Position numbers and translations under genes: made by a program
Shown: positions 4,066 to 63,528 of the stretch, one piece after another
Numbering within the stretch: position 1 is the first letter of the stretch
Layout of the letters: every line of letters starts with the position of its first letter
The notes under the pieces: generated by a model
Databases searched by the model: none
What the model saw: the letters and a program-made list of their open reading frames with translations, nothing else
Told to the model about the DNA's origin: nothing
From: a virus
Reading direction: 5' to 3' (one strand)
UHGV virus genome: UHGV-0072281
DNA: 64,000 nt

Positions 4066-4293
4066 ATGGAAATCAAACGTATTGTAACCAAAAACAAACA
4101 GATTGTTTACGTCGCAGGTGATAACGAATTCTCGGCGGTAATTAACAGCGAAAATGCGCTCATTATCGGTTATCCGGGTAAAGTTATTACGCGCAGTCAC
4201 CAACGTGCGATTGACAAACTTATCGCGAAAGCGAAAGCGCGCGACGGTGTTGGTTCAGTACAAACCCACACAGGGTTAACGCTGACCCTCTAG
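4066..4293 (+). CDS. Hypothetical protein
   Basis: 75-aa ORF with GGA-rich RBS. Confidence 0.5.
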   Translation: MEIKRIVTKNKQIVYVAGDNEFSAVINSENALIIGYPGKVITRSHQRAIDKLIAKAKARDGVGSVQTHTGLTLTL

Positions 4294-4332
4294 TCAGCAG
4301 GTAATATGACCTCTTAACTGGAGACTTTAATA

Positions 4333-4839
4333 ATGAGTGAGACTCTGGATTTTAATCAGCTCGAACAACACGATTTTGATCTCGGTGTTCGTGATATCGA
4401 TGCTGATCATGAAACACGTTGTAAAGAGCTGTTTAACCGTTACGGTCAGCTCATCACCGGTGCCTCTGATGACACCGAATTCAGTTTAGATGAGTTTGAA
4501 AAAGTTTTGTCGTGTTTTATCACCGATTGCCTGGCGAAGAAAGCGTTACTTGTAGAACTGAACTTAGACTCCGTCGAACCTACCGATGCCCACGCGGTGT
4601 TGAAAGAATCCATTATCCCAACTGATGAGATTATGGACACGGTAGCAGGTATTCGTGGTACGTTTGAAACCGCTGTAGATGAATACACGGAACAGCTTCG
4701 TGAGTCAGGACTGACGTTGTGTGCGCCAGCAGGCGAGCAATTACCGTCCGACGCAGAAACTGAAGAAGCGCGTAGCCGCTTAGCACGTTATGTTATCACG
4801 TCTATCTTGGTAGATGATCGCGAAGAGAATCTGCTGTAA
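4333..4839 (+). CDS. Hypothetical acidic protein
   Basis: 168-aa ORF, very acidic; followed by terminator. Confidence 0.6.
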   Translation: MSETLDFNQLEQHDFDLGVRDIDADHETRCKELFNRYGQLITGASDDTEFSLDEFEKVLSCFITDCLAKKALLVELNLDSVEPTDAHAVLKESIIPTDEIMDTVAGIRGTFETAVDEYTEQLRESGLTLCAPAGEQLPSDAETEEARSRLARYVITSILVDDREENLL

Positions 4840-20148: not shown

Positions 20149-20194
20149 TCAGATATATATTACCTAGAGGAGAGTGAAATTTACATTCACTCCA
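20149..20194 (+). promoter_or_regulatory. Promoter-like motif TCAGATATATATTACC plus downstream inverted repeat (gagtgaa/ttcactc)
   Basis: Exact motif copy; precedes gene 20222. Confidence 0.5.
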
Positions 20195-24536: not shown

Positions 24537-24577
24537 TCAGATATATATTACCTAGGTGAGAGTTCAGTTACTCTCAC
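24537..24577 (+). promoter_or_regulatory. Promoter-like motif TCAGATATATATTACC plus downstream inverted repeat (gtgagagt/actctcac)
   Basis: Exact motif copy; precedes gene 24608. Confidence 0.5.
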
Positions 24578-34670: not shown

Positions 34671-35218
34671 TCGTCTTCTCCTTTAATTAAACCCAGCTCG
34701 ATCAGAAGATCAAAATCGATTTTACGAAACTTACTATCAAAATTTGAGTCCCAGTCAATATGTAGTCCTTGACGTTCGTCTTCTGTAAACTCGGGATAAA
34801 CTAAACTATGAAAAGTTTCCCTTTCATCGTAAAAACCATCGATGGTGGACTCTGGGTTTCGTGTGACATAAATTGTTACACCGGGAAACGATAAGCCTAG
34901 GGCGGCTACAGATTCAACACTCGGCTCTTGCAAAGCGCGTCGCAAAAGAACGATTTTATGTTTAGGGAATTCCAGCACGCGCTGTTCAAAACCTGGGTTT
35001 CGTTTCTCGATTTCAGCCACAGAAAGATCGGTAAGTTCTGTACAATACATCGGAATAACAACGGTAACTCCGTGACGAATTAATAATCGCTTAACATCGT
35101 CATTGAAATCTTCGCCGTTAATCTGTACATAACAGCCAAACAGTTTCGTAGTTTCTAAAAACTTTTCCAGAAAACGGAATTTACGCTTCGTAATATTGTG
35201 GATCAGAATTGGCTTCAT
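34646..35218 (-). CDS. Hypothetical protein in radical SAM/peptide locus
   Basis: 190-aa ORF overlapping the SPASM rSAM gene end. Confidence 0.5.
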   Translation of the reverse strand: MKPILIHNITKRKFRFLEKFLETTKLFGCYVQINGEDFNDDVKRLLIRHGVTVVIPMYCTELTDLSVAEIEKRNPGFEQRVLEFPKHKIVLLRRALQEPSVESVAALGLSFPGVTIYVTRNPESTIDGFYDERETFHSLVYPEFTEDERQGLHIDWDSNFDSKFRKIDFDLLIELGLIKGEDECLLLTKA

Positions 35219-36503
35219 CTTTGGCTTCTCTCAATTGTTTTTCTTTCTGGGCGCGTTCACGTACACAGCGAGGACAGTAACACATGCTATTATCGTGAAA
35301 ATCCTTCACGGATGTTGTGCCCATTTTCTGCTTCCAATATTCCGCAACCATCAATTTTGCAGTTGTCCAACCACACTGACGACGTTCAGCGTGATATGCT
35401 TTACGGTCTTCTAACGTCCCTTCCCCATTCTCGTAGGAAGCTGCTGCACAGCTACCACAAGCGTGTTTCATTGGACAACCTAAGCACGTCTCAGGATAGT
35501 TGGTGTATTGCGTCTGAATCTCTTCCAGCAGTTTCCCACCGTCTAAACTAACGAATTCGCGACCGACTAACTCAAATACCGCAGAGCGTGACGTTACAGT
35601 CGACATGAAACGGTTACAACCGAAAATCTTCCTGTCAAACCCTAAACAAGTCATGTGCGTTAATGTCCCGCAGAACGGGCGCAAGCGTTCCGGGTTTAAA
35701 CGTACAGTATCGTTGTAAAGTAGCTGATCACGCCAGTTCGGTTCCCAGATAGTGTCGAAATCTAACCCTTCCGGGATGATATGCGAAAGGGTATTACGTG
35801 GGTTGGTGTGTAAACCCTTTTCAACCCAATAATCGACTACATCCATCATTTGTAGCGCTATCGACGTAGCCATACTCCGTGGCATAATGTCTTCGAAGGT
35901 TACGTTACCAGAAATGGTTCCACCTCCCGCCAAATCGATTAGGGATTTCATACCCGCCGCATAATGTGGGAGTGTCTCCAAAGTAAATGTCGCTTTAACC
36001 CCAAGCTCCGCGATACCTACTTCTTTTAGATAATTGTAACCACGTACAGCGGCCTCGTAGGAACCTTCGCGACTCGTTGTAAAAATACGGTACTTATCGT
36101 GCGACTCAGGTAACCCATCAATAGATACCCCGATAGAAAGTCTGTCCTTCCAACGTTCAATAATTTCCCTGTTCAACGGCCTATCTAATAATGTCCCATT
36201 AGTAGAGATACTAAACATAAACGGACGTTTATGTTCTTCACACAACTGCTCGGCTGTTTCGAAAGCAGTCATTAGAAGCTTAGGCTGCATAAACGGTTCA
36301 CCGCCGATAATGTCAATGATGACTTCTACGTTTGGTAAATCTTTATCGCGTTCAAAGCAGGCATGAAGAAAGTCTACAATATCCGCTGCTTTGTTATTGC
36401 GGGGATATTTACGCTCGTAACAATACTCACAGTCCAAATTACACGACAAGTTTGTAACAATCTGGTAAGTCAACTGTTTCGGGTAATTATTTTCTTGGTT
36501 CAT
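35181..36503 (-). CDS. Radical SAM enzyme with C-terminal SPASM-like Cys-rich domain (putative peptide-modifying maturase)
   Basis: N-terminal CNLDCEYC (C-x3-C-x2-C), IIGGEPF glycine-rich SAM motif, C-terminal Cys clusters incl. CLGCPMKHACGSC. Confidence 0.8.
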   Translation of the reverse strand: MNQENNYPKQLTYQIVTNLSCNLDCEYCYERKYPRNNKAADIVDFLHACFERDKDLPNVEVIIDIIGGEPFMQPKLLMTAFETAEQLCEEHKRPFMFSISTNGTLLDRPLNREIIERWKDRLSIGVSIDGLPESHDKYRIFTTSREGSYEAAVRGYNYLKEVGIAELGVKATFTLETLPHYAAGMKSLIDLAGGGTISGNVTFEDIMPRSMATSIALQMMDVVDYWVEKGLHTNPRNTLSHIIPEGLDFDTIWEPNWRDQLLYNDTVRLNPERLRPFCGTLTHMTCLGFDRKIFGCNRFMSTVTSRSAVFELVGREFVSLDGGKLLEEIQTQYTNYPETCLGCPMKHACGSCAAASYENGEGTLEDRKAYHAERRQCGWTTAKLMVAEYWKQKMGTTSVKDFHDNSMCYCPRCVRERAQKEKQLREAKDEANSDPQYYEA

Positions 36504-37410
36504 TTAATACTCCACTATTACGGTTGGCCATAACCACTCGTCGAATATACTCGTAGGCTTCTAACCCGATGGAACAAGCTAATTGGTTACATCCCGATTC
36601 TAATAATCTCGGGGCATTTTGCAACTGATATTCGGTTCCATCTGCTCTTAACCATAAACTATTGCTGCATACGTTACACCCACCATCAAAAACTTTGCTT
36701 ACGACATAGTCACACCTTTTCGAGTTGGAAACATTCAGTCTTTCTATATTTTCCTGAATTCTAAAATACCCGTAAATAAAGTTCATAACGTGATCGGGAG
36801 ATAACGGTTTTGGCATATTTGCGTCTAACAGCAACGTCATGGTACGATAACCGTAGTGATAGATCGCATTATGAAGCTCAATAATGTCTTCATGCCACCG
36901 TTTGTTACCCAACTGTTCTCGAGTTAAAACGGCCCATGTATGAACATTTTCAAGCTCATGCATTACTTCTAAAGCTTCGTAGCAATCATCGCTAATAAAA
37001 CGCTTAAAAGGGCGTTCAGACAACTCAAACCCGTCGATGCTAACATATACGTTATCAAATTGTTTTAACAACGGTAGATGCGTTTTACGCATCTTTAAGC
37101 CATTGGTGTATAACTGATGTTTGAGTTCTGGGCGAACTGCTTTTAACTCGTCAACAAACGCCTCAATTTTACGAGTGGCTAACAAAGGCTCACCACCCGT
37201 CCATTGAATCTCGGTAATTGTTGGGTTAGCTTCTAACGCCTCCATAATTCGGTCACGTTGAAACTCTCGAGAAGAATCTTCACGATTCATGTAATAGGCT
37301 CCGCCGCAGAAACTACAGTCCAGATTACATTTGGATGTAGTAATAACGGCTAATATAGTTGGATTATCAAATAGCTGATCTGATAATTTTGGTTCCGCAT
37401 TGGTCGCCAT
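36487..37410 (-). CDS. Radical SAM enzyme (paralogue B)
   Basis: VITTSKCNLDCSFCGG (C-x3-C-x2-C), WTGGEPLL; C-terminal Cys residues; paralogue of 39018-39929 with blocks of perfect nucleotide identity. Confidence 0.8.
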   Translation of the reverse strand: MATNAEPKLSDQLFDNPTILAVITTSKCNLDCSFCGGAYYMNREDSSREFQRDRIMEALEANPTITEIQWTGGEPLLATRKIEAFVDELKAVRPELKHQLYTNGLKMRKTHLPLLKQFDNVYVSIDGFELSERPFKRFISDDCYEALEVMHELENVHTWAVLTREQLGNKRWHEDIIELHNAIYHYGYRTMTLLLDANMPKPLSPDHVMNFIYGYFRIQENIERLNVSNSKRCDYVVSKVFDGGCNVCSNSLWLRADGTEYQLQNAPRLLESGCNQLACSIGLEAYEYIRRVVMANRNSGVLNEPRK

Positions 37411-56832: not shown

Positions 56833-57042
56833 TTAGTCTTTTTTGTAGACAATCGCGTTACCGTGCAGTTTGTTGTTACCGGAAATACCGATAACTTTAA
56901 ACGCTTCACCGCCGATCTTTTCAGCTTCGACAGCCAGCTTAGCAGTAACGTCGTCTACGGTATCACCGAAAGCGCTTACGTTACCAATTTTCTTGAACTC
57001 TTCAGGAATGTGTTCAGCAGAAGAGAATTCTTTAATAGCCAT
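56833..57042 (-). CDS. Small protein resembling the DUF1471 (YdgH/BhsA/McbA) domain, without signal peptide
   Basis: 69 aa; C-terminal ISGNNKLHGNAIVYKK resembles the conserved G.NnkL.GTA..YK end of that family (from memory); GGAGAG RBS. Confidence 0.45.
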   Translation of the reverse strand: MAIKEFSSAEHIPEEFKKIGNVSAFGDTVDDVTAKLAVEAEKIGGEAFKVIGISGNNKLHGNAIVYKKD

Positions 57043-57241: not shown

Positions 57242-58207
57242 TCAGCGTGGGCCTGAAGTTGGGCCATGGACGCCGTCATGGATGTGTACGCTGAAGGTAA
57301 TACCGGAAATAACCGCATCCTTAACCGTAAAGATACCCACGCCTTCGCCCGTACCACCGTATTTGAAGTTCTTAGCAACTTCCAAATTACCGGTGAACAT
57401 CGCTTCTTTACCTTCTTGCTTAAAGTTCGGCGTTTTATACGTTGTTGAACCAGAAGCTTCAGTTAGCCAGGTTTCTGTTTTAAAGGTGACCGATTTCGAC
57501 GCTTCGGTATTCCGAACTTCGCATTTCTCATTAATCGTTTTCGTTTCCAGGTTAATCGAACGTTTTGCGTAAATGAATGCATCTTCTTTATTGATGTTCA
57601 CTTTTGAAAGCATCGCGTTCTCAAAACCTAAATCGTCTTCCACCGAGTTAATGTAATACTTATTCCCTTTATGGTCAACGCACTGCCACGACCCGTTAGC
57701 GTTATCGAATTGGAATAACCACGCCGCTTTCTCCCCATTCACCATACTTGTTCTTAGGGTAACGTGTTTGTCAATCGTTGAGACGTTTAACACATACGCG
57801 TTCGACAAGTCATCCGCCATCTGGTTTTCAGGGTCAGCCGACCACGCGTAAACCGCATCTTCTAATCGCTTAACGTTAGCGAAATTCAGATCAATCCAAA
57901 AATAAATATCCGTTTTCCCCAAACGTAACAAGATAACGTAATCTTCTCGTTTAACGTCAGGGGAATTAATTCGGTTGGAGTTAAACTTCCACCACTTTGC
58001 CGTTATCGTGTTACCCGTCTTAATGGTTAGGTTATCTGTTGCACCAGATGTTTCATGCGTCTTTTCAGTTGCTGAAGAAACAGATTGTACCACGGTAGGG
58101 TTAGCAAAGTTAGTTTCAATTGGTATCACTTTTACCCGATCTGTACCACGGGGTTTGTCTTCCGCGACGATACCAATTGAGAAAAAATCAACGCTGGATT
58201 TCTCCAT
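57242..58207 (-). CDS. Hypothetical protein
   Basis: 321-aa ORF on minus strand. Confidence 0.55.
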   Translation of the reverse strand: MEKSSVDFFSIGIVAEDKPRGTDRVKVIPIETNFANPTVVQSVSSATEKTHETSGATDNLTIKTGNTITAKWWKFNSNRINSPDVKREDYVILLRLGKTDIYFWIDLNFANVKRLEDAVYAWSADPENQMADDLSNAYVLNVSTIDKHVTLRTSMVNGEKAAWLFQFDNANGSWQCVDHKGNKYYINSVEDDLGFENAMLSKVNINKEDAFIYAKRSINLETKTINEKCEVRNTEASKSVTFKTETWLTEASGSTTYKTPNFKQEGKEAMFTGNLEVAKNFKYGGTGEGVGIFTVKDAVISGITFSVHIHDGVHGPTSGPR

Positions 58208-58235
58208 TAGGTCGTTCCTTAGATCGGAAATAGAT

Positions 58236-58290
58236 TCAGATATATTTTACTTAAGTGAATAGGAGCTGAAGTGCGAATTCAGCTCCTATA
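58236..58290 (+). promoter_or_regulatory. Promoter-like motif variant (TCAGATATATTTTAC) plus 11-bp-stem hairpin (taggagctgaa/ttcagctccta)
   Basis: Motif family member; sits in divergent intergenic region. Confidence 0.4.
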
Positions 58291-58595
58291 GGCACGTTTC
58301 TTTCGAAACGGAGTTACCACGTGATTAAGAGACAGACCAATGTCTACTGAGAAGAAAAGCGGATTGGACGAAGTCATCGAACTGTTCAAACGCTACAACC
58401 CAGCTATTCCTCGGTAATCATAGTATTACTTAAAATTTACAGATTGTCCCTTTATTCTGCTACTCGGGATACCGGTAGGGGGTAGGGGGCAATATGTATA
58501 CGGATATAAATAGCGGAGGTATACGTAGTATACCGACATACTCTTCCCAGAGGAACGTAGTGACTTCCTTATTCCAGTTTAGGAGAATAAACCCC

Positions 58596-59330
58596 ATGAG
58601 AGAATTATTAGACGATATCTTTACCAACACCAGTTTAGAACTTTCTTCTACGCTGGTTAACGAGCTAATAAAACAATACCAACCTGCTAAGTTAATCTCT
58701 GTCTGGATAGTTAAACCCGAAGAATATCCAGACAGTGACATTATCGACTGTATGATTGACGAATACGCTATAGGCAGTTACGCCAACCAGATCTACTTTA
58801 TTCTTAATACCGAAACCAGCATCATGTTAATCTATAAGTTGATCAGTGACGCCGAACTTGAAGTTGTGGCTGACCACATTCGTCTTCTTGCGAATGCGCC
58901 TACTGGTTACAAAGTTGCGCTTATTGGTGACGGTTGGCCTTTGCCACCGCTATTCACTTACTTCCCTCTGTTTAAACATGGGATAGGGTTACTCCGTCAT
59001 GCAGAAAATCTTCCCGATAACGTAGAGTTATCACTGCTTGGGCCCGGCATCGATCTTTATCCATTAAAAGACGAGGGCACGCTATATGGTTTGCGCATCT
59101 ATGTTTCTGTGTTAAAGGGATACCGCGTTATTGAATTGATTGCATCAGACTTAGCAAAACAGATCCCCGAAGCAGAAACGATTTCTAAAGCCACCCACCT
59201 GGTTGAAATTAACCCGGACGATCCGTTATTACGGTATCACAAAGAAATTGACCTTCGTAAAATCGCCACGATAAGAGGATGGGATTGTGCTGAGATTACG
59301 AATAATAACCTGTTACTAGTACGTAAGTAA
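58596..59330 (+). CDS. Hypothetical protein (possible member of tandem paralogue family)
   Basis: ATG 58596 with AGGAG RBS (track begins 58494); C-terminus GW...NNNLLLV loosely matches family motif. Confidence 0.5.
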   Translation: MRELLDDIFTNTSLELSSTLVNELIKQYQPAKLISVWIVKPEEYPDSDIIDCMIDEYAIGSYANQIYFILNTETSIMLIYKLISDAELEVVADHIRLLANAPTGYKVALIGDGWPLPPLFTYFPLFKHGIGLLRHAENLPDNVELSLLGPGIDLYPLKDEGTLYGLRIYVSVLKGYRVIELIASDLAKQIPEAETISKATHLVEINPDDPLLRYHKEIDLRKIATIRGWDCAEITNNNLLLVRK

Positions 59331-59350
59331 AAAACCTAAAGGAGAATAAA

Positions 59351-59908
59351 ATGTCTACTATTGAACTGAAACAACAAGTTATTGGGTTTATTAAGCTGGG
59401 TACAGGTAAACACCGACTTGATTATCCTTGCGTTATACAGTCTAACATTATCCCGGTCGATACAATGATTACCGGTCTTCAGGTTGAAGAATTTGATGGA
59501 GATGCTGTGGTTTGGGAACGCCATTTCACACGACTTAATTATCGTAAAGTCGGAGATAGTTTTACCGAAATATTCCGTCATCTGTTTTCCGGTACCGGAT
59601 GGAAAGTAACGAGTGCGTTCTACGGTGGCAATGTTGTTACGCTTCTAGACAGAGGAGATGCACGTTATCTCGTGAACTTTACTTTCGCAAGACACTATGC
59701 GTATTTCCCTAACCCTCTTACGTGTACGTTAAGTAACCCAGGAATACTACTAACAGATAAAGAAGCAGACGTTCTACTCGCCGAACTGCGAAAAGACGGT
59801 TGCGACGTTGACGATTGGGAAACATTAATCGCGGTTGCCAAAGCACACGGTTGGTACAGCGTACGTAAAATCGGTCAGCAGTTATTATTCTTAGCTTACC
59901 CTGTTTAA
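59351..59908 (+). CDS. Hypothetical protein, tandem paralogue family
   Basis: 185 aa; C-terminal HGWYSVRKIGQQLLFLA; conserved upstream CCTAAAGGAGAATAAAATG. Confidence 0.6.
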   Translation: MSTIELKQQVIGFIKLGTGKHRLDYPCVIQSNIIPVDTMITGLQVEEFDGDAVVWERHFTRLNYRKVGDSFTEIFRHLFSGTGWKVTSAFYGGNVVTLLDRGDARYLVNFTFARHYAYFPNPLTCTLSNPGILLTDKEADVLLAELRKDGCDVDDWETLIAVAKAHGWYSVRKIGQQLLFLAYPV

Positions 59909-59938
59909 GTAACAAAAAAACCTAAAGGAGAGTAAAAA

Positions 59939-61090
59939 ATGCGAAATATTATTTCTAAACCAGGACATGTCAAGATCCTAAAAGAACTGATGGACAGATG
60001 CTATAATCGGACTTGGCCTCTGCCAAGCTTAACCATCGAGTCTTCATTACAACGCGAGTTGTTTGGTTATAACTTGGGCTGCTGCGTACTGAGTGAATAC
60101 GATGAGATTATCGCGCCTGTCGATGTCTGTACTTACGATGAAGAAATTGAAGGTTACCAGTTCGAGGTTTACACAAATTCTGGACTAAATTACCGTAAAC
60201 TCGTTGTTAGAGAAAAGAGTAGCGGCCGGAAGATTATGTTTAAGGTCTTCCCAAGCGGTAAAGTCAGTAGTTTATGTTTTCAGCTTGAGCAAGTGTCCTT
60301 TCACGGCGCAGCTATTTTAACTAAAGCAGAACGTGCGTTATTAAGCGGGTTAATCGGCTTTGAAGCAAAAACCATCAAAGTAGAACAGGAACTCACACGA
60401 AACGATTTCGGCTCGACCTGGTACGAAAGTTTCTTCCGCTACGAAATTTTAAGTGATAAAGCTATCAAACTCACTTACCGTTCTACCGACGATCTCGTTT
60501 ACCACATTTTAATTAGCGGCGAACCCCATCTGATTATTGAAGACAAAGGAGAAAATCAAATGTCTGGCTTAAGAGACGAATTAGCCCAATTCATTCGTGA
60601 CGTCGAAGAGAAAAGCAAGAGCGATCACATTTTCTCACAACGCTATCCTGAACTTATTGACGAAACCACCGATAGTGTCGTCGATGTTATACGCATTTTC
60701 CCAAGTGGTTTTGCAATCTACCGACTGCCTAGCGTTAATCAGCTTAAAGTCATGGAAATGCTAAAAGACGTTTTAGCAGAAGCGGGTTGGGAATATCGTT
60801 TCGATTGCAATTTCGAAGGGATGGCGTTATTCGTTACAAAGAAAAATTATACGTTGTCAATCGATCTGCCCAAAAGTCAATATTACAGTTTCTTCCCAAA
60901 AGCGTATGACCGCACTGAAAAAGAACCTGCGTTGTTACTCGATGCGGCAGAATCCAATACGCTAATGATGCGTCTGCGGATGGTTGACAAAAAGTTAAAT
61001 ACCGGCCATCTAACGACGATCGGTAAAGATTACGGTTGGAAATCTGTCGAACCGTACGGCAGTCAGCTGCTGTTTGTTGCTGACCTTTAA
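59939..61090 (+). CDS. Hypothetical protein, tandem paralogue family
   Basis: 383 aa; C-terminal YGWKSVEPYGSQLLFVA. Confidence 0.6.
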   Translation: MRNIISKPGHVKILKELMDRCYNRTWPLPSLTIESSLQRELFGYNLGCCVLSEYDEIIAPVDVCTYDEEIEGYQFEVYTNSGLNYRKLVVREKSSGRKIMFKVFPSGKVSSLCFQLEQVSFHGAAILTKAERALLSGLIGFEAKTIKVEQELTRNDFGSTWYESFFRYEILSDKAIKLTYRSTDDLVYHILISGEPHLIIEDKGENQMSGLRDELAQFIRDVEEKSKSDHIFSQRYPELIDETTDSVVDVIRIFPSGFAIYRLPSVNQLKVMEMLKDVLAEAGWEYRFDCNFEGMALFVTKKNYTLSIDLPKSQYYSFFPKAYDRTEKEPALLLDAAESNTLMMRLRMVDKKLNTGHLTTIGKDYGWKSVEPYGSQLLFVADL

Positions 61091-61117
61091 TAAGTAAAAA
61101 TACACTTTCTCTAACTG

Positions 61118-61143
61118 CCGCGCTTTAGTCGCGGCTTTTGTTA
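61118..61143 (+). terminator. Rho-independent terminator (probable)
   Basis: Hairpin gccgcg-ctttagt-cgcggc followed by TTTTGTT. Confidence 0.55.
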
Positions 61144-61157
61144 AGAAGGAAAAAGAA

Positions 61158-61931
61158 ATGAAAATCCATTTAGATCACCTCTTTAAATCTGAACCGTATA
61201 TGGTTAAAGGTTCGCTGGCTTCATTGTTGCTAGACGATAGATTTCATCGAACGCTGCAATTACAATCGGTCGAATCCGCGCCAACAGAAGACGTGGGTCT
61301 TTATCAACGTATCACTTATACACGTGGAGAATATCGGCGATATAAACCTGATACGCTAACCGTTAAGCTCTGGCAAGTGGCCACAGGCAAAGTATTAACT
61401 TATCGCGCTGTTGGTCTGTACTACGTTGAACGTGCCTACGCATGGTTAGAAGAAGTTAAAGAAATGGATTACGACCGTTTAAGCAAAAGACTACGCGATA
61501 ATAACGCCAGTTTACCGCTACGTAATTATTTCTCCACAATTGAAAATAGTCGTTGTTTCGTTTCACGCGAATCCATGATATTGCCTGGGGCTGATGTTCA
61601 GACGACACTAAAAGATGTGGTTGTGAGGAAAATCTTTCATGAATCTGAACACGTTGGATTTCGTATCTATTTAACGCACAAGAGGCCATTTACCGTGATT
61701 CATCTTGTTACCGTACCCGAAGGCTCGGCAGTCGTACGTGAACTTCCTGACGCACGTGACCGTAGCCCTAATGAGCCACTTTACTTAATGTCAGGAACAA
61801 AATCAGAATCTTTGATGTCCCGTTACAGCATGGTTGATGTTGTTGATACTGCTATGAAATTAGGTTGGAAAGAAGTACAGCAACACGGCAAACAATTGCT
61901 GTTTATCGCAGATGTAAATCTCAATAACTAA
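61158..61931 (+). CDS. Hypothetical protein, tandem paralogue family
   Basis: 257 aa; C-terminal LGWKEVQQHGKQLLFIA. Confidence 0.6.
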   Translation: MKIHLDHLFKSEPYMVKGSLASLLLDDRFHRTLQLQSVESAPTEDVGLYQRITYTRGEYRRYKPDTLTVKLWQVATGKVLTYRAVGLYYVERAYAWLEEVKEMDYDRLSKRLRDNNASLPLRNYFSTIENSRCFVSRESMILPGADVQTTLKDVVVRKIFHESEHVGFRIYLTHKRPFTVIHLVTVPEGSAVVRELPDARDRSPNEPLYLMSGTKSESLMSRYSMVDVVDTAMKLGWKEVQQHGKQLLFIADVNLNN

Positions 61932-61943
61932 AGAGGTGGTACC

Positions 61944-62522
61944 GTGTACCGATTAATAGAAATGAGAAAAGACGTTTGGTTGGAAAACCTCGTCGATGGG
62001 GAGCTTGAGGGAATAGAGCTTTCCTTACCAGAGAGAGCGGACACGGTATTGGCCTTTCTGGTAAAACAGGCAGACCGTGAACCGGTAGGAATCTTCACTG
62101 TGGACTATAAAGACCCGCGAGGGATTCATTTACGGAACATTTGCAGTGGTTTGGAAAACTTACCGGCTAATCCGTTCTTAAACTACGCAAAACGTAAACT
62201 CCGACCGGGACAACACCTCTGGGTAACGTTAGCGCCTGACATTAGAATCATGCGTGACGATTACTCGGCGTTTGTACAGGCAACGAAAGTCAGTCTGTAT
62301 AACCCGAACGCAGAGCGTACCGATATGCCGTTTATAATTACCTTAGAAGACGATGGAACGCAAGAAGGTATTGAGGCAATTACGGAATTAGTAAACTCTT
62401 ATCCGGTTGCCACTATCGAGTTAGAAAACCCAGGTCGTTTACAACTGGGTGACCTGCTCGAATGGATTGAACTGAATACAGAATTCTTAATCAATTCTCG
62501 TCAGTATCGATTCGACGTTTAA
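61944..62522 (+). CDS. Hypothetical protein
   Basis: GTG start with AAGAGGTGG RBS. Confidence 0.55.
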   Translation: MYRLIEMRKDVWLENLVDGELEGIELSLPERADTVLAFLVKQADREPVGIFTVDYKDPRGIHLRNICSGLENLPANPFLNYAKRKLRPGQHLWVTLAPDIRIMRDDYSAFVQATKVSLYNPNAERTDMPFIITLEDDGTQEGIEAITELVNSYPVATIELENPGRLQLGDLLEWIELNTEFLINSRQYRFDV

Positions 62523-62526
62523 CAAC

Positions 62527-62560
62527 GGTGGGGTGTAAACCCCACCTTTTATTTTTTGTT
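62527..62560 (+). terminator. Rho-independent terminator
   Basis: Hairpin ggtggggt-gtaa-accccacc followed by T-run. Confidence 0.8.
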
Positions 62561-62580: not shown

Positions 62581-62620
62581 TCAGATATATATTACTTAGG
62601 TGAGAGTTAAGATTAACTCT
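62581..62620 (+). promoter_or_regulatory. Promoter-like motif TCAGATATATATTAC plus downstream inverted repeat (gagagttaa/ttaactct)
   Basis: Exact motif copy directly after terminator; precedes gene 62652. Confidence 0.5.
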
Positions 62621-62651: not shown

Positions 62652-63113
62652 ATGAAAATTTTCACTTCCTTTTTAATCGTTCTTTTCGCAATCGGATTCA
62701 ATACTGCACACGCTGCAATCAATAGTTGGGAACAACTACAGAACCCAGGTCAGGCTGTTTACGAAATTGAAGACACCGCCGGAAACGGACTGTCTATCAA
62801 CTGTGACACTGAAACTGCGAATCGCAAATTTTACGGTCGCATGGTTTGGTATTACGGGGAACCTGTAGGTGCAACTAACGCTGAAGACAACACGCTGGAT
62901 ATCGTCGTAAATGGCAAAACTTACAACATCCCTACCGTGGATGGTAGTGACAAAGCAGAACACGCTTGGGTGGCTTTCGTTAATGCTATCGGCAATGCCA
63001 AAACTTTCAGTGTGAATATCAACGGAAACGAAGCCGCTAACTTTACCGTAGAAGGTGAACGTCTGTCTGAAACTTTCTTCCAGAACTGTGGACACACCCG
63101 TCCTAACAAATAA
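62652..63113 (+). CDS. Secreted protein (signal peptide)
   Basis: N-terminus MKIFTSFLIVLFAIGFNTAHA-A typical Sec signal with AxA site; GAGGAG RBS. Confidence 0.6.
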   Translation: MKIFTSFLIVLFAIGFNTAHAAINSWEQLQNPGQAVYEIEDTAGNGLSINCDTETANRKFYGRMVWYYGEPVGATNAEDNTLDIVVNGKTYNIPTVDGSDKAEHAWVAFVNAIGNAKTFSVNINGNEAANFTVEGERLSETFFQNCGHTRPNK

Positions 63114-63141
63114 GTATTAATCTTTTTTAGAGTGCGTGAAA

Positions 63142-63528
63142 ATGAATATCAGAACTATACTTTATACCATCATTATTTTCTGTGCAGTCGGTATTACTGC
63201 CACTTATGCTTTCGGTGAATCGGATGTCCGCTATTACGAACCGGCTCCTGACTCACCGATTATCAACCCGGATGAGACGCCTACGTTAATGCGCAGTTTC
63301 GGTAAACTGCAAGTTTATCGTTTAGTGCGTGGTGAAACGTGTACGGGATTGCTCATTGCTGACACTCGTGCACAAGTCTACCAACGTCTGACGGATATCG
63401 CCTGCGAACAACCAAAAGTCATGTCGGTCAGTATTCATCCGTTAGAGGTCGGTAACTATACTGCTGTGGACTTCTTCCATAATGCAGAACTGATTGGTCG
63501 TATTACTTTAAATCGTAGCGCTGAATAA
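63142..63528 (+). CDS. Secreted or membrane-anchored small protein
   Basis: N-terminal hydrophobic segment ILYTIIIFCAVGITATYA; ATG 63142 (track begins GTG 63136). Confidence 0.55.
   Translation: MNIRTILYTIIIFCAVGITATYAFGESDVRYYEPAPDSPIINPDETPTLMRSFGKLQVYRLVRGETCTGLLIADTRAQVYQRLTDIACEQPKVMSVSIHPLEVGNYTAVDFFHNAELIGRITLNRSAE

Follow-up and report, generated by a model that had tools for sequence, protein, structure and literature searches.

The phages SPN3US, Phobos, Stratton and Wellington each carry a single gene of one protein family at a syntenic site beside a baseplate gene. Its products are gp175 of SPN3US (SPN3US_0175, YP_009153469.1, 412 aa, phrog_33648), gp176 of Phobos (319 aa), gp194 of Stratton/PhiEaH2 (223 aa) and gp194 of Wellington (218 aa). 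These genes diverge from the baseplate gene, a homologue of phiKZ gp164, and in SPN3US and Stratton a phrog_20879 gene follows directly downstream. All counterparts are uncharacterised: a literature search returned nothing on the family and no published function for the SPN3US, Phobos, Stratton/PhiEaH2 and Wellington proteins. Lineage-specific expansion of paralogues is known in the same phage group from the 17-member head family of SPN3US (PMC5105663). That family consists of virion proteins, which undergo processing and packaging, whereas the family considered here was not found in virions and seems to be early.

The window, the whole stretch of 64,000 nucleotides analysed from virus genome UHGV-0072281, comes from a jumbo phage of the nucleus-forming phiKZ/SPN3US type, with SPN3US and Erwinia phage Stratton as relatives. 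No near-identical DNA was found among 50,697 phage records; INPHARED holds relatives but not the window phage. The clade of this phage has three to four family genes at the syntenic site, and the window itself contains three clear members and a degenerate one, in contrast to the single gene of the SPN3US-type phages. The counterparts share the C-terminal module with the window genes (35–46% identity over ~65 aa), whereas the N-terminal sequences are unrelated.

Judged by synteny, g61158 (61158–61931, + strand, 257 aa) is the positional orthologue of SPN3US gp175, Phobos gp176 and Stratton gp194, as it directly precedes g61944, a phrog_20879 gene, and has the module nearest to the consensus; in the SPN3US-type arrangement the family gene is the first large + strand gene after the divergent baseplate gene. 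The genes g58596 (58596–59330, +, 244 aa), g59351 (59351–59908, +, 185 aa) and g59939 (59939–61090, +, 383 aa) are clade-specific additions. In a 222-kb relative scanned over its whole genome, the family occurs in the array only, and no remnant of SPN3US gp174 was found in the spacer 58208–58595. Our preferred explanation, a tentative one, is that an ancestral, non-structural gp175-type gene was expanded in tandem into early, modular and dispensable accessory proteins with a docking module.

A C-terminal module common to consecutive genes

The C-termini of g59351 (...GWYSVRKIGQQLLFLAYPV), g59939 (...GWKSVEPYGSQLLFVADL) and g61158 (...GWKEVQQHGKQLLFIADVNLNN) all read GWxxVxxxGxQLLFxA, and that of g58596 (...GWDCAEITNNNLLLVRK) has a loose form of it. 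The module extends over approximately 59705–59905 in g59351, 60893–61087 in g59939 and 61743–61928 in g61158, the member nearest to the family consensus. BLASTP aligns g59351 with g59939 over 110 aa (E 3e-8) and g59939 with g61158 over 65 aa (E 6e-9); with the C-terminal half of g59939 alone, the match to g61158 covers 117 aa (E 1.4e-9). The similarity between members thus spans ~110–117 aa, beyond the last 16 residues. An independent HMM was built from distant family members only, leaving out the window genes and their orthologues. Among 596 window ORFs, it retrieved g61158 (E 1.7e-19), g59939 (E 2.9e-10) and g59351 (E 3.7e-10), the best non-member scoring E 2.2. The initial annotation, which had described three consecutive genes with a common C-terminal motif, is therefore borne out by the sequence, BLASTP and the HMM, and the similarity is significant at HMM E-values of 4e-10 to 2e-19.

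The fourth gene is less clear. Its region equivalent to the module lies at ~59142–59327. The independent HMM, which recognised the other three genes, missed it (E 16 among the 596 window ORFs). The last ~105 aa of g58596 nevertheless align with g61158 with a score of 67 (z 7.5) that none of 500 shuffles reached, BLASTP gave an E-value of 0.013, and a profile–profile alignment (hhalign) that covers 80 columns in register up to the C-terminus has P 0.011. The product of g58596 is thus probably homologous to the other three, with a degenerate motif, and the earlier wording that it matches loosely was accurate, since the pairwise and profile–profile signals accompany a miss by the HMM. For this gene the start at 58596 is preferred: an AGGAGA ribosome-binding site precedes it by 9 nt, and the length of 244 aa agrees with the gene calls on public contigs.

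The pairwise and profile comparisons uphold the description of a paralogue family of 185–383 aa with a conserved C-terminal module and divergent N-termini. Internal duplication in g59939 or homology of the N-terminal parts was considered and rejected: there was only a marginal signal between the N-terminal half of g59939 and g59351 (z 2.6, reached by 14 of 500 shuffles), and the remaining N-terminal comparisons within the array were at noise level. Near-identical initiation regions, CCTAAAGGAGA(A/G)TAAAA, had also been reported before 59351 and 59939, and both are present. The ribosome-binding region CCTAAAGGAGA lies at 59335–59345 (+) for g59351 and is repeated identically at 59921–59931 (+) before g59939; the window contains this 11-mer nowhere else in exact form.

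The next gene downstream, g61944 (61944–62522, +, 192 aa), matches phrog_20879 (E 8.6e-32) and lies outside the module family; as a fifth member it was rejected (z −0.6 versus the family). It is 32–37% identical to the downstream neighbours in SPN3US and Stratton, where it is a conserved neighbour of the family gene, and it is co-oriented and apparently co-transcribed with the array.

Distribution and predicted fold of the module

The module consists of ~65 residues with the signature [IL]PDxxDR[ST]xN[DE]PxYLMS...GWxxVxxxGxQLLFI[AS]. An exhaustive HMM search of 1.84 billion proteins retrieved only 28 cluster representatives, 72–412 aa long. In all 28, as in every window member, the module lies at the C-terminus or ends within a few residues of it. 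Many stand-alone versions of 87–152 aa are encoded on contigs of jumbo-phage size, and the module is therefore an autonomous domain. These contigs are related to the Ea35-70/Deimos-Minion group, PhiEaH1 and a Shewanella phage. They have the same domain and the strongest form of the motif (IPDxxDRTxNDPxYLMSSxDVLKLIK...GWxEVKLxGKQLLFI), but little or no N-terminal domain and often an insertion of 20–40 residues between the two helices, and they are encoded at other genomic sites, without tandem arrays.

The domain was previously unannotated, being split over four PHROGs of unknown function (phrog_26772, 33648, 24489 and 18480) and absent from Pfam. The PHROG matches of g61158 fall at the C-termini of the profiles, and its tblastn matches, in 32 phage records, cover the C-terminal region only. 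The module seems confined to jumbo phages of the phiKZ type that infect gamma-proteobacteria. Across several genera of these phages the motif is kept at 25–45% identity, with invariant P, G, W and Q, stand-alone genes included, indicating purifying selection on the protein. This conservation argues against neutral, fast-decaying ORFan duplicates whose C-terminus would persist mainly as a junction for homologous recombination, a reading considered further below.

Structure prediction of the module, proposed with the initial annotation, gave a confident model, but the fold yields no functional assignment. In the AlphaFold2 model of full-length g61158, pLDDT exceeds 90 at residues 190–252 and confidence is low for residues 1–185, which made a fold search with the whole protein uninformative. 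The module-only model used instead (mean pLDDT 82.8) has a predicted β-α-α-β-β topology. Nothing usable came out of scanning the members against Pfam, NCBIfam and PADLOC or of a sequence-profile search of the PDB; the sole match in PADLOC, a library of defence proteins, was spurious (DpdF, E 0.002). Neither these scans nor the literature searched linked a member to a known anti-defence protein. Despite its GW motif, the module does not correspond to the GW module of Listeria-type cell-wall binding (PF13457), which matched one of 16 members, at E 0.19 only.

A divergent or remnant class I SAM-dependent methyltransferase is very improbable, and as an enzyme it is effectively refuted. The resemblance to the C-terminal sub-structure of these enzymes spans only ~60 residues, is at the level expected for a two-layer fold of that size, and is accompanied by no sequence relation. 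The Rossmann-like seven-stranded fold with motif I and acidic loop was not found, nor was there a methyltransferase match in Pfam or NCBIfam for any member, a catalytic motif, or a GxGxG SAM-binding motif in the N-terminal parts, regions that are not predicted, at low confidence, as Rossmann folds. Moreover, the stand-alone proteins of 72–105 aa contain the module and nothing else.

The module could alternatively be a diverged winged-helix, excisionase-like or R3H-like domain, the paralogues being nucleic-acid-binding regulators that tune early-to-middle expression or mRNA fate. This is an unlikely reading. Structural matches of these types rank behind the methyltransferase fragments and, for a domain of 60 residues, amount to noise, and no member has an HTH or R3H match in Pfam. 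Neither a profile or structural match to winged-helix or excisionase-type HTH domains (HTH_17, MerR-like) nor a basic recognition helix was found. The sequence is unrelated to R3H domains and lacks their R-x-x-x-H in the β-α-α-β-β fold: the conserved R has no H at +4. The most conserved residues belong to the loop at the N-terminus (PDxxDRSxNEP) and to the final strand rather than to the second helix. Finally, the module is neutral to acidic, with a median net charge of −2 in a sample consisting mostly of g59351 orthologues, which fits protein binding better than generic binding of nucleic acids.

Signals for a putative early transcription unit

Host-takeover genes usually lie behind early promoters. 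Upstream of the array, at 58236–58250 (+), the sequence TCAGATATATTTTAC has one mismatch to the consensus TCAGATATATATTAC, which was derived from a k-mer survey of intergenic DNA and resembles an early promoter for the virion RNA polymerase. The motif occurs in the window at 261, 20149, 24537, 58236 and 62581, exclusively in intergenic DNA and co-oriented with the downstream genes. The complete 222-kb relative has eight copies, all on one strand. The motif also immediately precedes the family gene in Phobos (L002, position 8141) and in two further relatives (L004 and L006), while SPN3US has no close copy before gp174/gp175. An earlier guess at the promoter, TAKTATTAC, was discarded because it was not enriched (43 matches versus 42 expected). 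AT-rich early motifs of ~10 nt have been described in phiKZ-type phages (PMC7598289; PMC8244752), and from its sequence the motif at 58236 fits these.

The motif is followed by a hairpin at 58261–58287 (+; AGGAGCTGAA-GTGCGAA-TTCAGCTCCT, read from the sequence), presumably in the 5' leader, and comparable hairpins follow other copies of the motif. Between g59939 and g61158, a GC-rich hairpin followed by TTTTGTT (61117–61135, +) may act as a weak internal terminator or attenuator. A hairpin and T-run resembling an intrinsic terminator (62527–62546, +) closes the unit, the next early-promoter motif lying at 62581–62595. With the 58236 motif in front and the 62527 terminator behind, the array looks like an early operon.

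The array directly adjoins baseplate and tail genes, and its mosaic variation between near-identical phages, described below, is typical of host-range cassettes. Both features would suit tail-associated or host-range proteins, such as adaptors, fibre chaperones or receptor-binding accessories docking on the baseplate through the conserved domain and differing from host to host. We consider this quite improbable, as transcription of the array diverges from that of the tail genes, with an early-type motif in front of the array. SPN3US gp175 is absent from the mass-spectrometry list of 83 virion proteins, which runs 171, 173, 193, although its neighbours gp168–171 and gp173 were detected. In other jumbo phages, stand-alone versions of 90–150 aa are surrounded by small genes of early type. 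In phage fibre proteins, moreover, it is usually the N-terminus that is conserved and the C-terminus that varies; the module family does the opposite.

Mosaicism, gene loss and possible roles

The array is much more variable than its surroundings. Between the window and a relative (L006), tail genes are 96–100% identical, whereas the four array genes, in order, are 48, 45, 75 and 82% identical. The breakpoints are sharp in DNA identity plots, and one lies within g59939 near 60550; the N-terminal half of this gene, up to ~60550, and its C-terminal half recombine independently. Two allele classes of g59351 (185 and 184 aa) share ~45% identity over their full length and 67–70% in the module, and in 11 of 12 comparisons between orthologues the module exceeded the N-terminal part in conservation. 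The gene g58596 is missing from the copy of the phage in Enterobacter ludwigii (NZ_CP134650.1), and the homologue of g59939 in another relative (L020), the sole match in a search with the N-terminal half, carries a nonsense codon (Q150*). The earlier claim of a diversifying family is substantiated by this recombination hot spot between phages with 96–100% identical flanks, and further by the gene presence/absence and the nonsense allele among relatives.

Gene absence, the nonsense allele, loss of the motif in g58596 and clustering of breakpoints near the module boundaries would all be compatible with the neutral decay mentioned above, and part of the strong conservation that divergent alleles show at the extreme C-terminus could stem from its use as a recombination junction instead of from functional constraint. 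Neutral duplicates nonetheless seem a poor prospect as the whole explanation: besides the conservation of the motif across genera, the four ORFs are intact in nearly all of the ~225-kb relatives sampled.

The reading we prefer remains that of a tandem expansion. One gp175-family gene of SPN3US-type nucleus-forming jumbo phages would have been amplified in a single lineage, and the injected virion RNA polymerase would transcribe the four genes and g61944 as one early unit, from the 58236 motif to the 62527 terminator. Each protein would be modular, combining a fast-evolving N-terminal part that is exchangeable by recombination with the conserved C-terminal domain of ~65 residues. This domain would most likely serve as a common handle for docking or assembly, connecting varied N-terminal specificity domains to one shared partner of phage or host. 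That the module is an interaction or targeting domain, as the initial annotation proposed, is suggested by this architecture. On this view the genes would be dispensable, with selection on them diversifying or frequency-dependent, and their accessory functions would be such as one expects in host takeover, anti-defence or the exclusion of competitor phages. Because the array is shuffled between otherwise near-identical phages and looks early, its genes are candidates for host interaction or anti-defence; an anti-defence role is plausible as a prediction. JADA, the Avs5 activator of phiKZ-type phages, was examined as a relative and rejected (721 aa, different conserved locus).

A more specific proposal, of low probability, is that the module is an address or docking domain peculiar to phiKZ-type phages, bringing interchangeable N-terminal effectors to one site of the infection machinery. 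Candidate sites would be the early infection vesicle, the nuclear shell with its import apparatus, or a phage RNA polymerase. In that case, tandem arrangement and recombination would make the array a system of cassettes for exchanging host- or defence-specific effectors on a common anchor.

The array offers an entry point to the early genes of nucleus-forming jumbo phages, most of which have no assigned function, and to the questions of protein targeting to the early vesicle and nucleus and of counter-defence. A domain that has been amplified in one clade and shuffled at the domain level between almost identical phages marks a locus probably under strong, variable selection. The natural sets of alleles, namely the two g59351 classes, the swapped halves of g59939 and the presence or absence of g58596, can be used for tests against defence panels and for the identification of partners. 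If the module is a common anchor, it would provide a usable tag for delivering cargo in jumbo-phage infections; if it is not, the array would be an ordinary hypervariable accessory region.

Membership of the tandem family

Five co-oriented genes, named by start coordinate, lie divergently from a baseplate gene: g58596 (58596-59330, 244 aa), g59351 (59351-59908, 185 aa), g59939 (59939-61090, 383 aa), g61158 (61158-61931, 257 aa), and g61944 (61944-62522, 192 aa). The first four form the array. The initial annotation had noted a common GW..V...G.QLLF.A C-terminus in g59351, g59939, and g61158, and this was found exactly as given, as were the two near-identical CCTAAAGGAGA ribosome-binding regions. 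The similarity is significant in BLASTP, between g59351 and g59939 (E 3e-8 over 110 aa) and between g59939 and g61158 (E 6e-9; 1.4e-9 over 117 aa with the C-terminal half of g59939 alone). To avoid circularity, an independent HMM was restricted to 53 distant relatives. Run against the window's full set of 596 stop-to-stop ORFs, this HMM retrieved g61158 (E 1.7e-19), g59939 (2.9e-10), and g59351 (3.7e-10), and no other ORF below E 2.

The fourth, looser match proposed at the same time was also borne out, the C-terminus of g58596 reading GWDCAEITNNNLLLVRK. BLASTP relates it to g61158 with E 0.013 over 112 aa. Although the HMM did not detect g58596, its last 105 residues align to g61158 with a z-score of 7.5 (0/500 shuffles as high), and profile-profile comparison gave P 0.011 in the correct register. 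On this sequence evidence, g58596 is therefore taken as a degenerate fourth member. The following gene, g61944, is unrelated in sequence and was rejected as a member.

The shared C-terminal module

Alignment with relatives defines a module of about 65 residues, consisting of [IL]PDxxDR[ST]xN[DE]PxYLMS[AS], two helices, and GWxxVxxxGxQLLFI[AS], in which two prolines, followed by G, W, V, G, and Q, are invariant; g61158 best keeps the consensus. When 1.84 billion representative proteins were scanned exhaustively with an HMM, only 28 clusters reached E ≤ 0.001, with proteins of 72-412 aa and the module always at the C-terminus or a few residues from it. A word-index search added many proteins of 87-152 aa that comprise little beyond the module, which is thus an autonomous domain; some are encoded on contigs related to Erwinia Ea35-70/Deimos-Minion-type phages. 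On two of these contigs, the stand-alone genes lie amid small genes spaced by 0.3-1 kb of non-coding DNA, an unusually large distance. Further copies were located by tblastn in PhiEaH1 and a Shewanella phage. No sequence match was found in Pfam, NCBIfam, or the PDB; in PHROGs the family is spread over four groups of 'unknown function', each matching at the C-terminus. A literature search on the family found nothing.

Structure prediction, which the initial annotation had proposed as a check, gave a confident AlphaFold2 model (pLDDT >90 within the full-length protein, mean 82.8 when modelled alone). The predicted topology is a conserved loop followed by beta-alpha-alpha-beta-beta. The convincing BFVD matches are all uncharacterised and all from SPN3US/Erwinia-type jumbo phages; three of them apparently belong to Erwinia phage Wellington, judging partly from adjacent accession numbers. 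Resemblance of a modelled two-layer fold of 60 residues does not amount to an assignment, nor does this fold distinguish protein binding from nucleic-acid binding. The module is neutral to acidic, and it is unlikely that the array proteins are nucleic-acid-binding regulators. Features defining class I SAM methyltransferases, winged-helix, and R3H proteins are absent from the family, and the notion of methyltransferase remnants deserves hardly any credence.

Genomic and transcriptional context

The region is part of a phiKZ-type jumbo phage. Its baseplate protein (57242-58207, -; phrog_3216, E 4e-113), a homologue of phiKZ gp164, shares 73.5% identity with its Erwinia phage Stratton counterpart and about 64% with the SPN3US-group proteins (tblastn). 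No near-identical DNA match was found among the phage records searched; the exact sequence is present on 107-226-kb contigs of public assemblies. Two circular 'plasmids' from complete bacterial assemblies, NZ_CP173450.1 of E. coli 98232 (221,873 bp) and NZ_CP134650.1 of Enterobacter ludwigii (222,441 bp), are close relatives, with 93-95% DNA identity over the 7.1 kb compared. Homologues of array genes also occur on ~220-226-kb contigs in assemblies named Salmonella, Shigella, and E. coli. The 'plasmid' deposits and contigs suggest either that a lytic-type jumbo phage persists in a carrier state or by pseudolysogeny, or that contamination has recurred.

Sister phages carry a single family gene at the syntenic position: gp175 in SPN3US (412 aa), gp176 in Phobos (319 aa), and gp194 in both Stratton (223 aa) and Wellington (218 aa). 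In SPN3US and Stratton it is followed by a g61944 homologue, as in the window. In contrast, every sampled member of the window's ~225-kb clade has the tandem set; therefore, g61158 is the ancestral orthologue and the others are clade-specific additions. In a complete 222-kb relative, six-frame scanning found no family copy outside the array. Between the baseplate and family genes, SPN3US and Stratton have a 105-aa gene (gp174/gp193) unrelated to the 25-codon ORF of the window (58341-58418, +; MSTEKKSGLDEVIELFKRYNPAIPR), which lies between a putative promoter motif and g58596 and is related to a called 47-aa ORF in one relative (L020).

That motif, TCAGATATATATTAC, emerged from a k-mer survey of intergenic DNA, with copies on the + strand at 261-275, 20149-20163, 24537-24551, 58236-58250 (one mismatch), and 62581-62595. 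It is exclusively intergenic and always points the same way as the genes that it precedes; an A/T-rich stretch lies ahead of it, and behind it come cTTAgGTGAGA and a hairpin. Phobos and two related loci (L004 and L006) also have the motif ahead of the family gene, and the complete 222-kb relative has eight copies, all on one strand; no close copy was found ahead of SPN3US gp174/175. Published descriptions of early virion-RNA-polymerase promoters of the phiKZ type agree with TCAGATATATATTAC (PMC7598289; PMC8244752), which probably marks the early promoters of this phage. A strong terminator-like hairpin at 62527-62546, just ahead of the next motif copy, would delimit a single early unit of about 58236-62546. 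The mass-spectrometry table of the SPN3US virion lists gp168-171, gp173, and next gp193 (PMC5105663 supplement); the absence of gp175 argues against a structural role, notwithstanding the neighbouring tail genes, and tail or host-range accessories seem an improbable identity for the array proteins.

Elsewhere in the window, g62652 (62652-63113, +; YfjT-like, PF27224 in public gene calls) has a hydrophobic, signal-peptide-like N-terminus and a homologue duplicated in L004-L006, g63136 (63136-63528, +; phrog_9424) starts with a hydrophobic segment, and a 69-aa BhsA/YdgH (DUF1471)-like gene without obvious signal peptide lies between tail genes (56833-57042, -). These three are phage-carried host-envelope-type proteins. 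Two adjacent genes at 35181-37410 (-; 440 and 307 aa), with counterparts annotated 'radical SAM protein' in NZ_CP173450.1, are close to large tail/tail-fibre genes, an unusual cargo for a tail region.

Divergence of the array

The divergence pattern of the array is the most informative result. Compared with L006, flanking tail proteins are 96-100% identical, whereas g58596, g59351, g59939, and g61158 products are 48, 45, 75, and 82% identical, and that of g61944 77%. In a sliding comparison, DNA identity drops from 94-100% to 46-62% at about 58550, inside one 200-nt step. Locus L011 retains g58596 (86-93% DNA identity) but not g59351. In L005 and L011, the N-terminal half of g59939 is unalignable (41-45%) and the C-terminal half 91-97% identical; L012 shows the opposite (91-95% and 49-62%, respectively). 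The gene g58596 is wholly absent from the E. ludwigii copy (locus L019, from NZ_CP134650.1; positions 4209-4594 of the locus), and in L020 (4001-5152) a CAA to TAA nonsense codon, Q150*, splits the g59939 homologue into ORFs of 149 and 214 aa. The swapped halves, the loss of g58596, and the Q150* allele therefore make the locus a domain-level recombination hot spot of dispensable genes. In 11 of 12 comparisons between orthologues, conservation is higher in the module than in the N-terminal part. Near-neutral decay of duplicates is a doubtful account of the array.

Selection appears to differ between hosts or competitors. We lean, tentatively, towards modular and probably early accessory proteins, whose conserved C-terminal domain would serve as a common attachment while the exchangeable N-terminal parts would confer specificity. 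The 'host-takeover or anti-defence array' of the initial annotation is a reasonable fit to the pattern, as a predicted role. A hypervariable, probably early paralogue cluster is a familiar kind of locus in a large phage; the family itself is unannotated, and its module may conceivably, at rather low probability, be an address domain, specific to this phage group, for interchangeable effectors.
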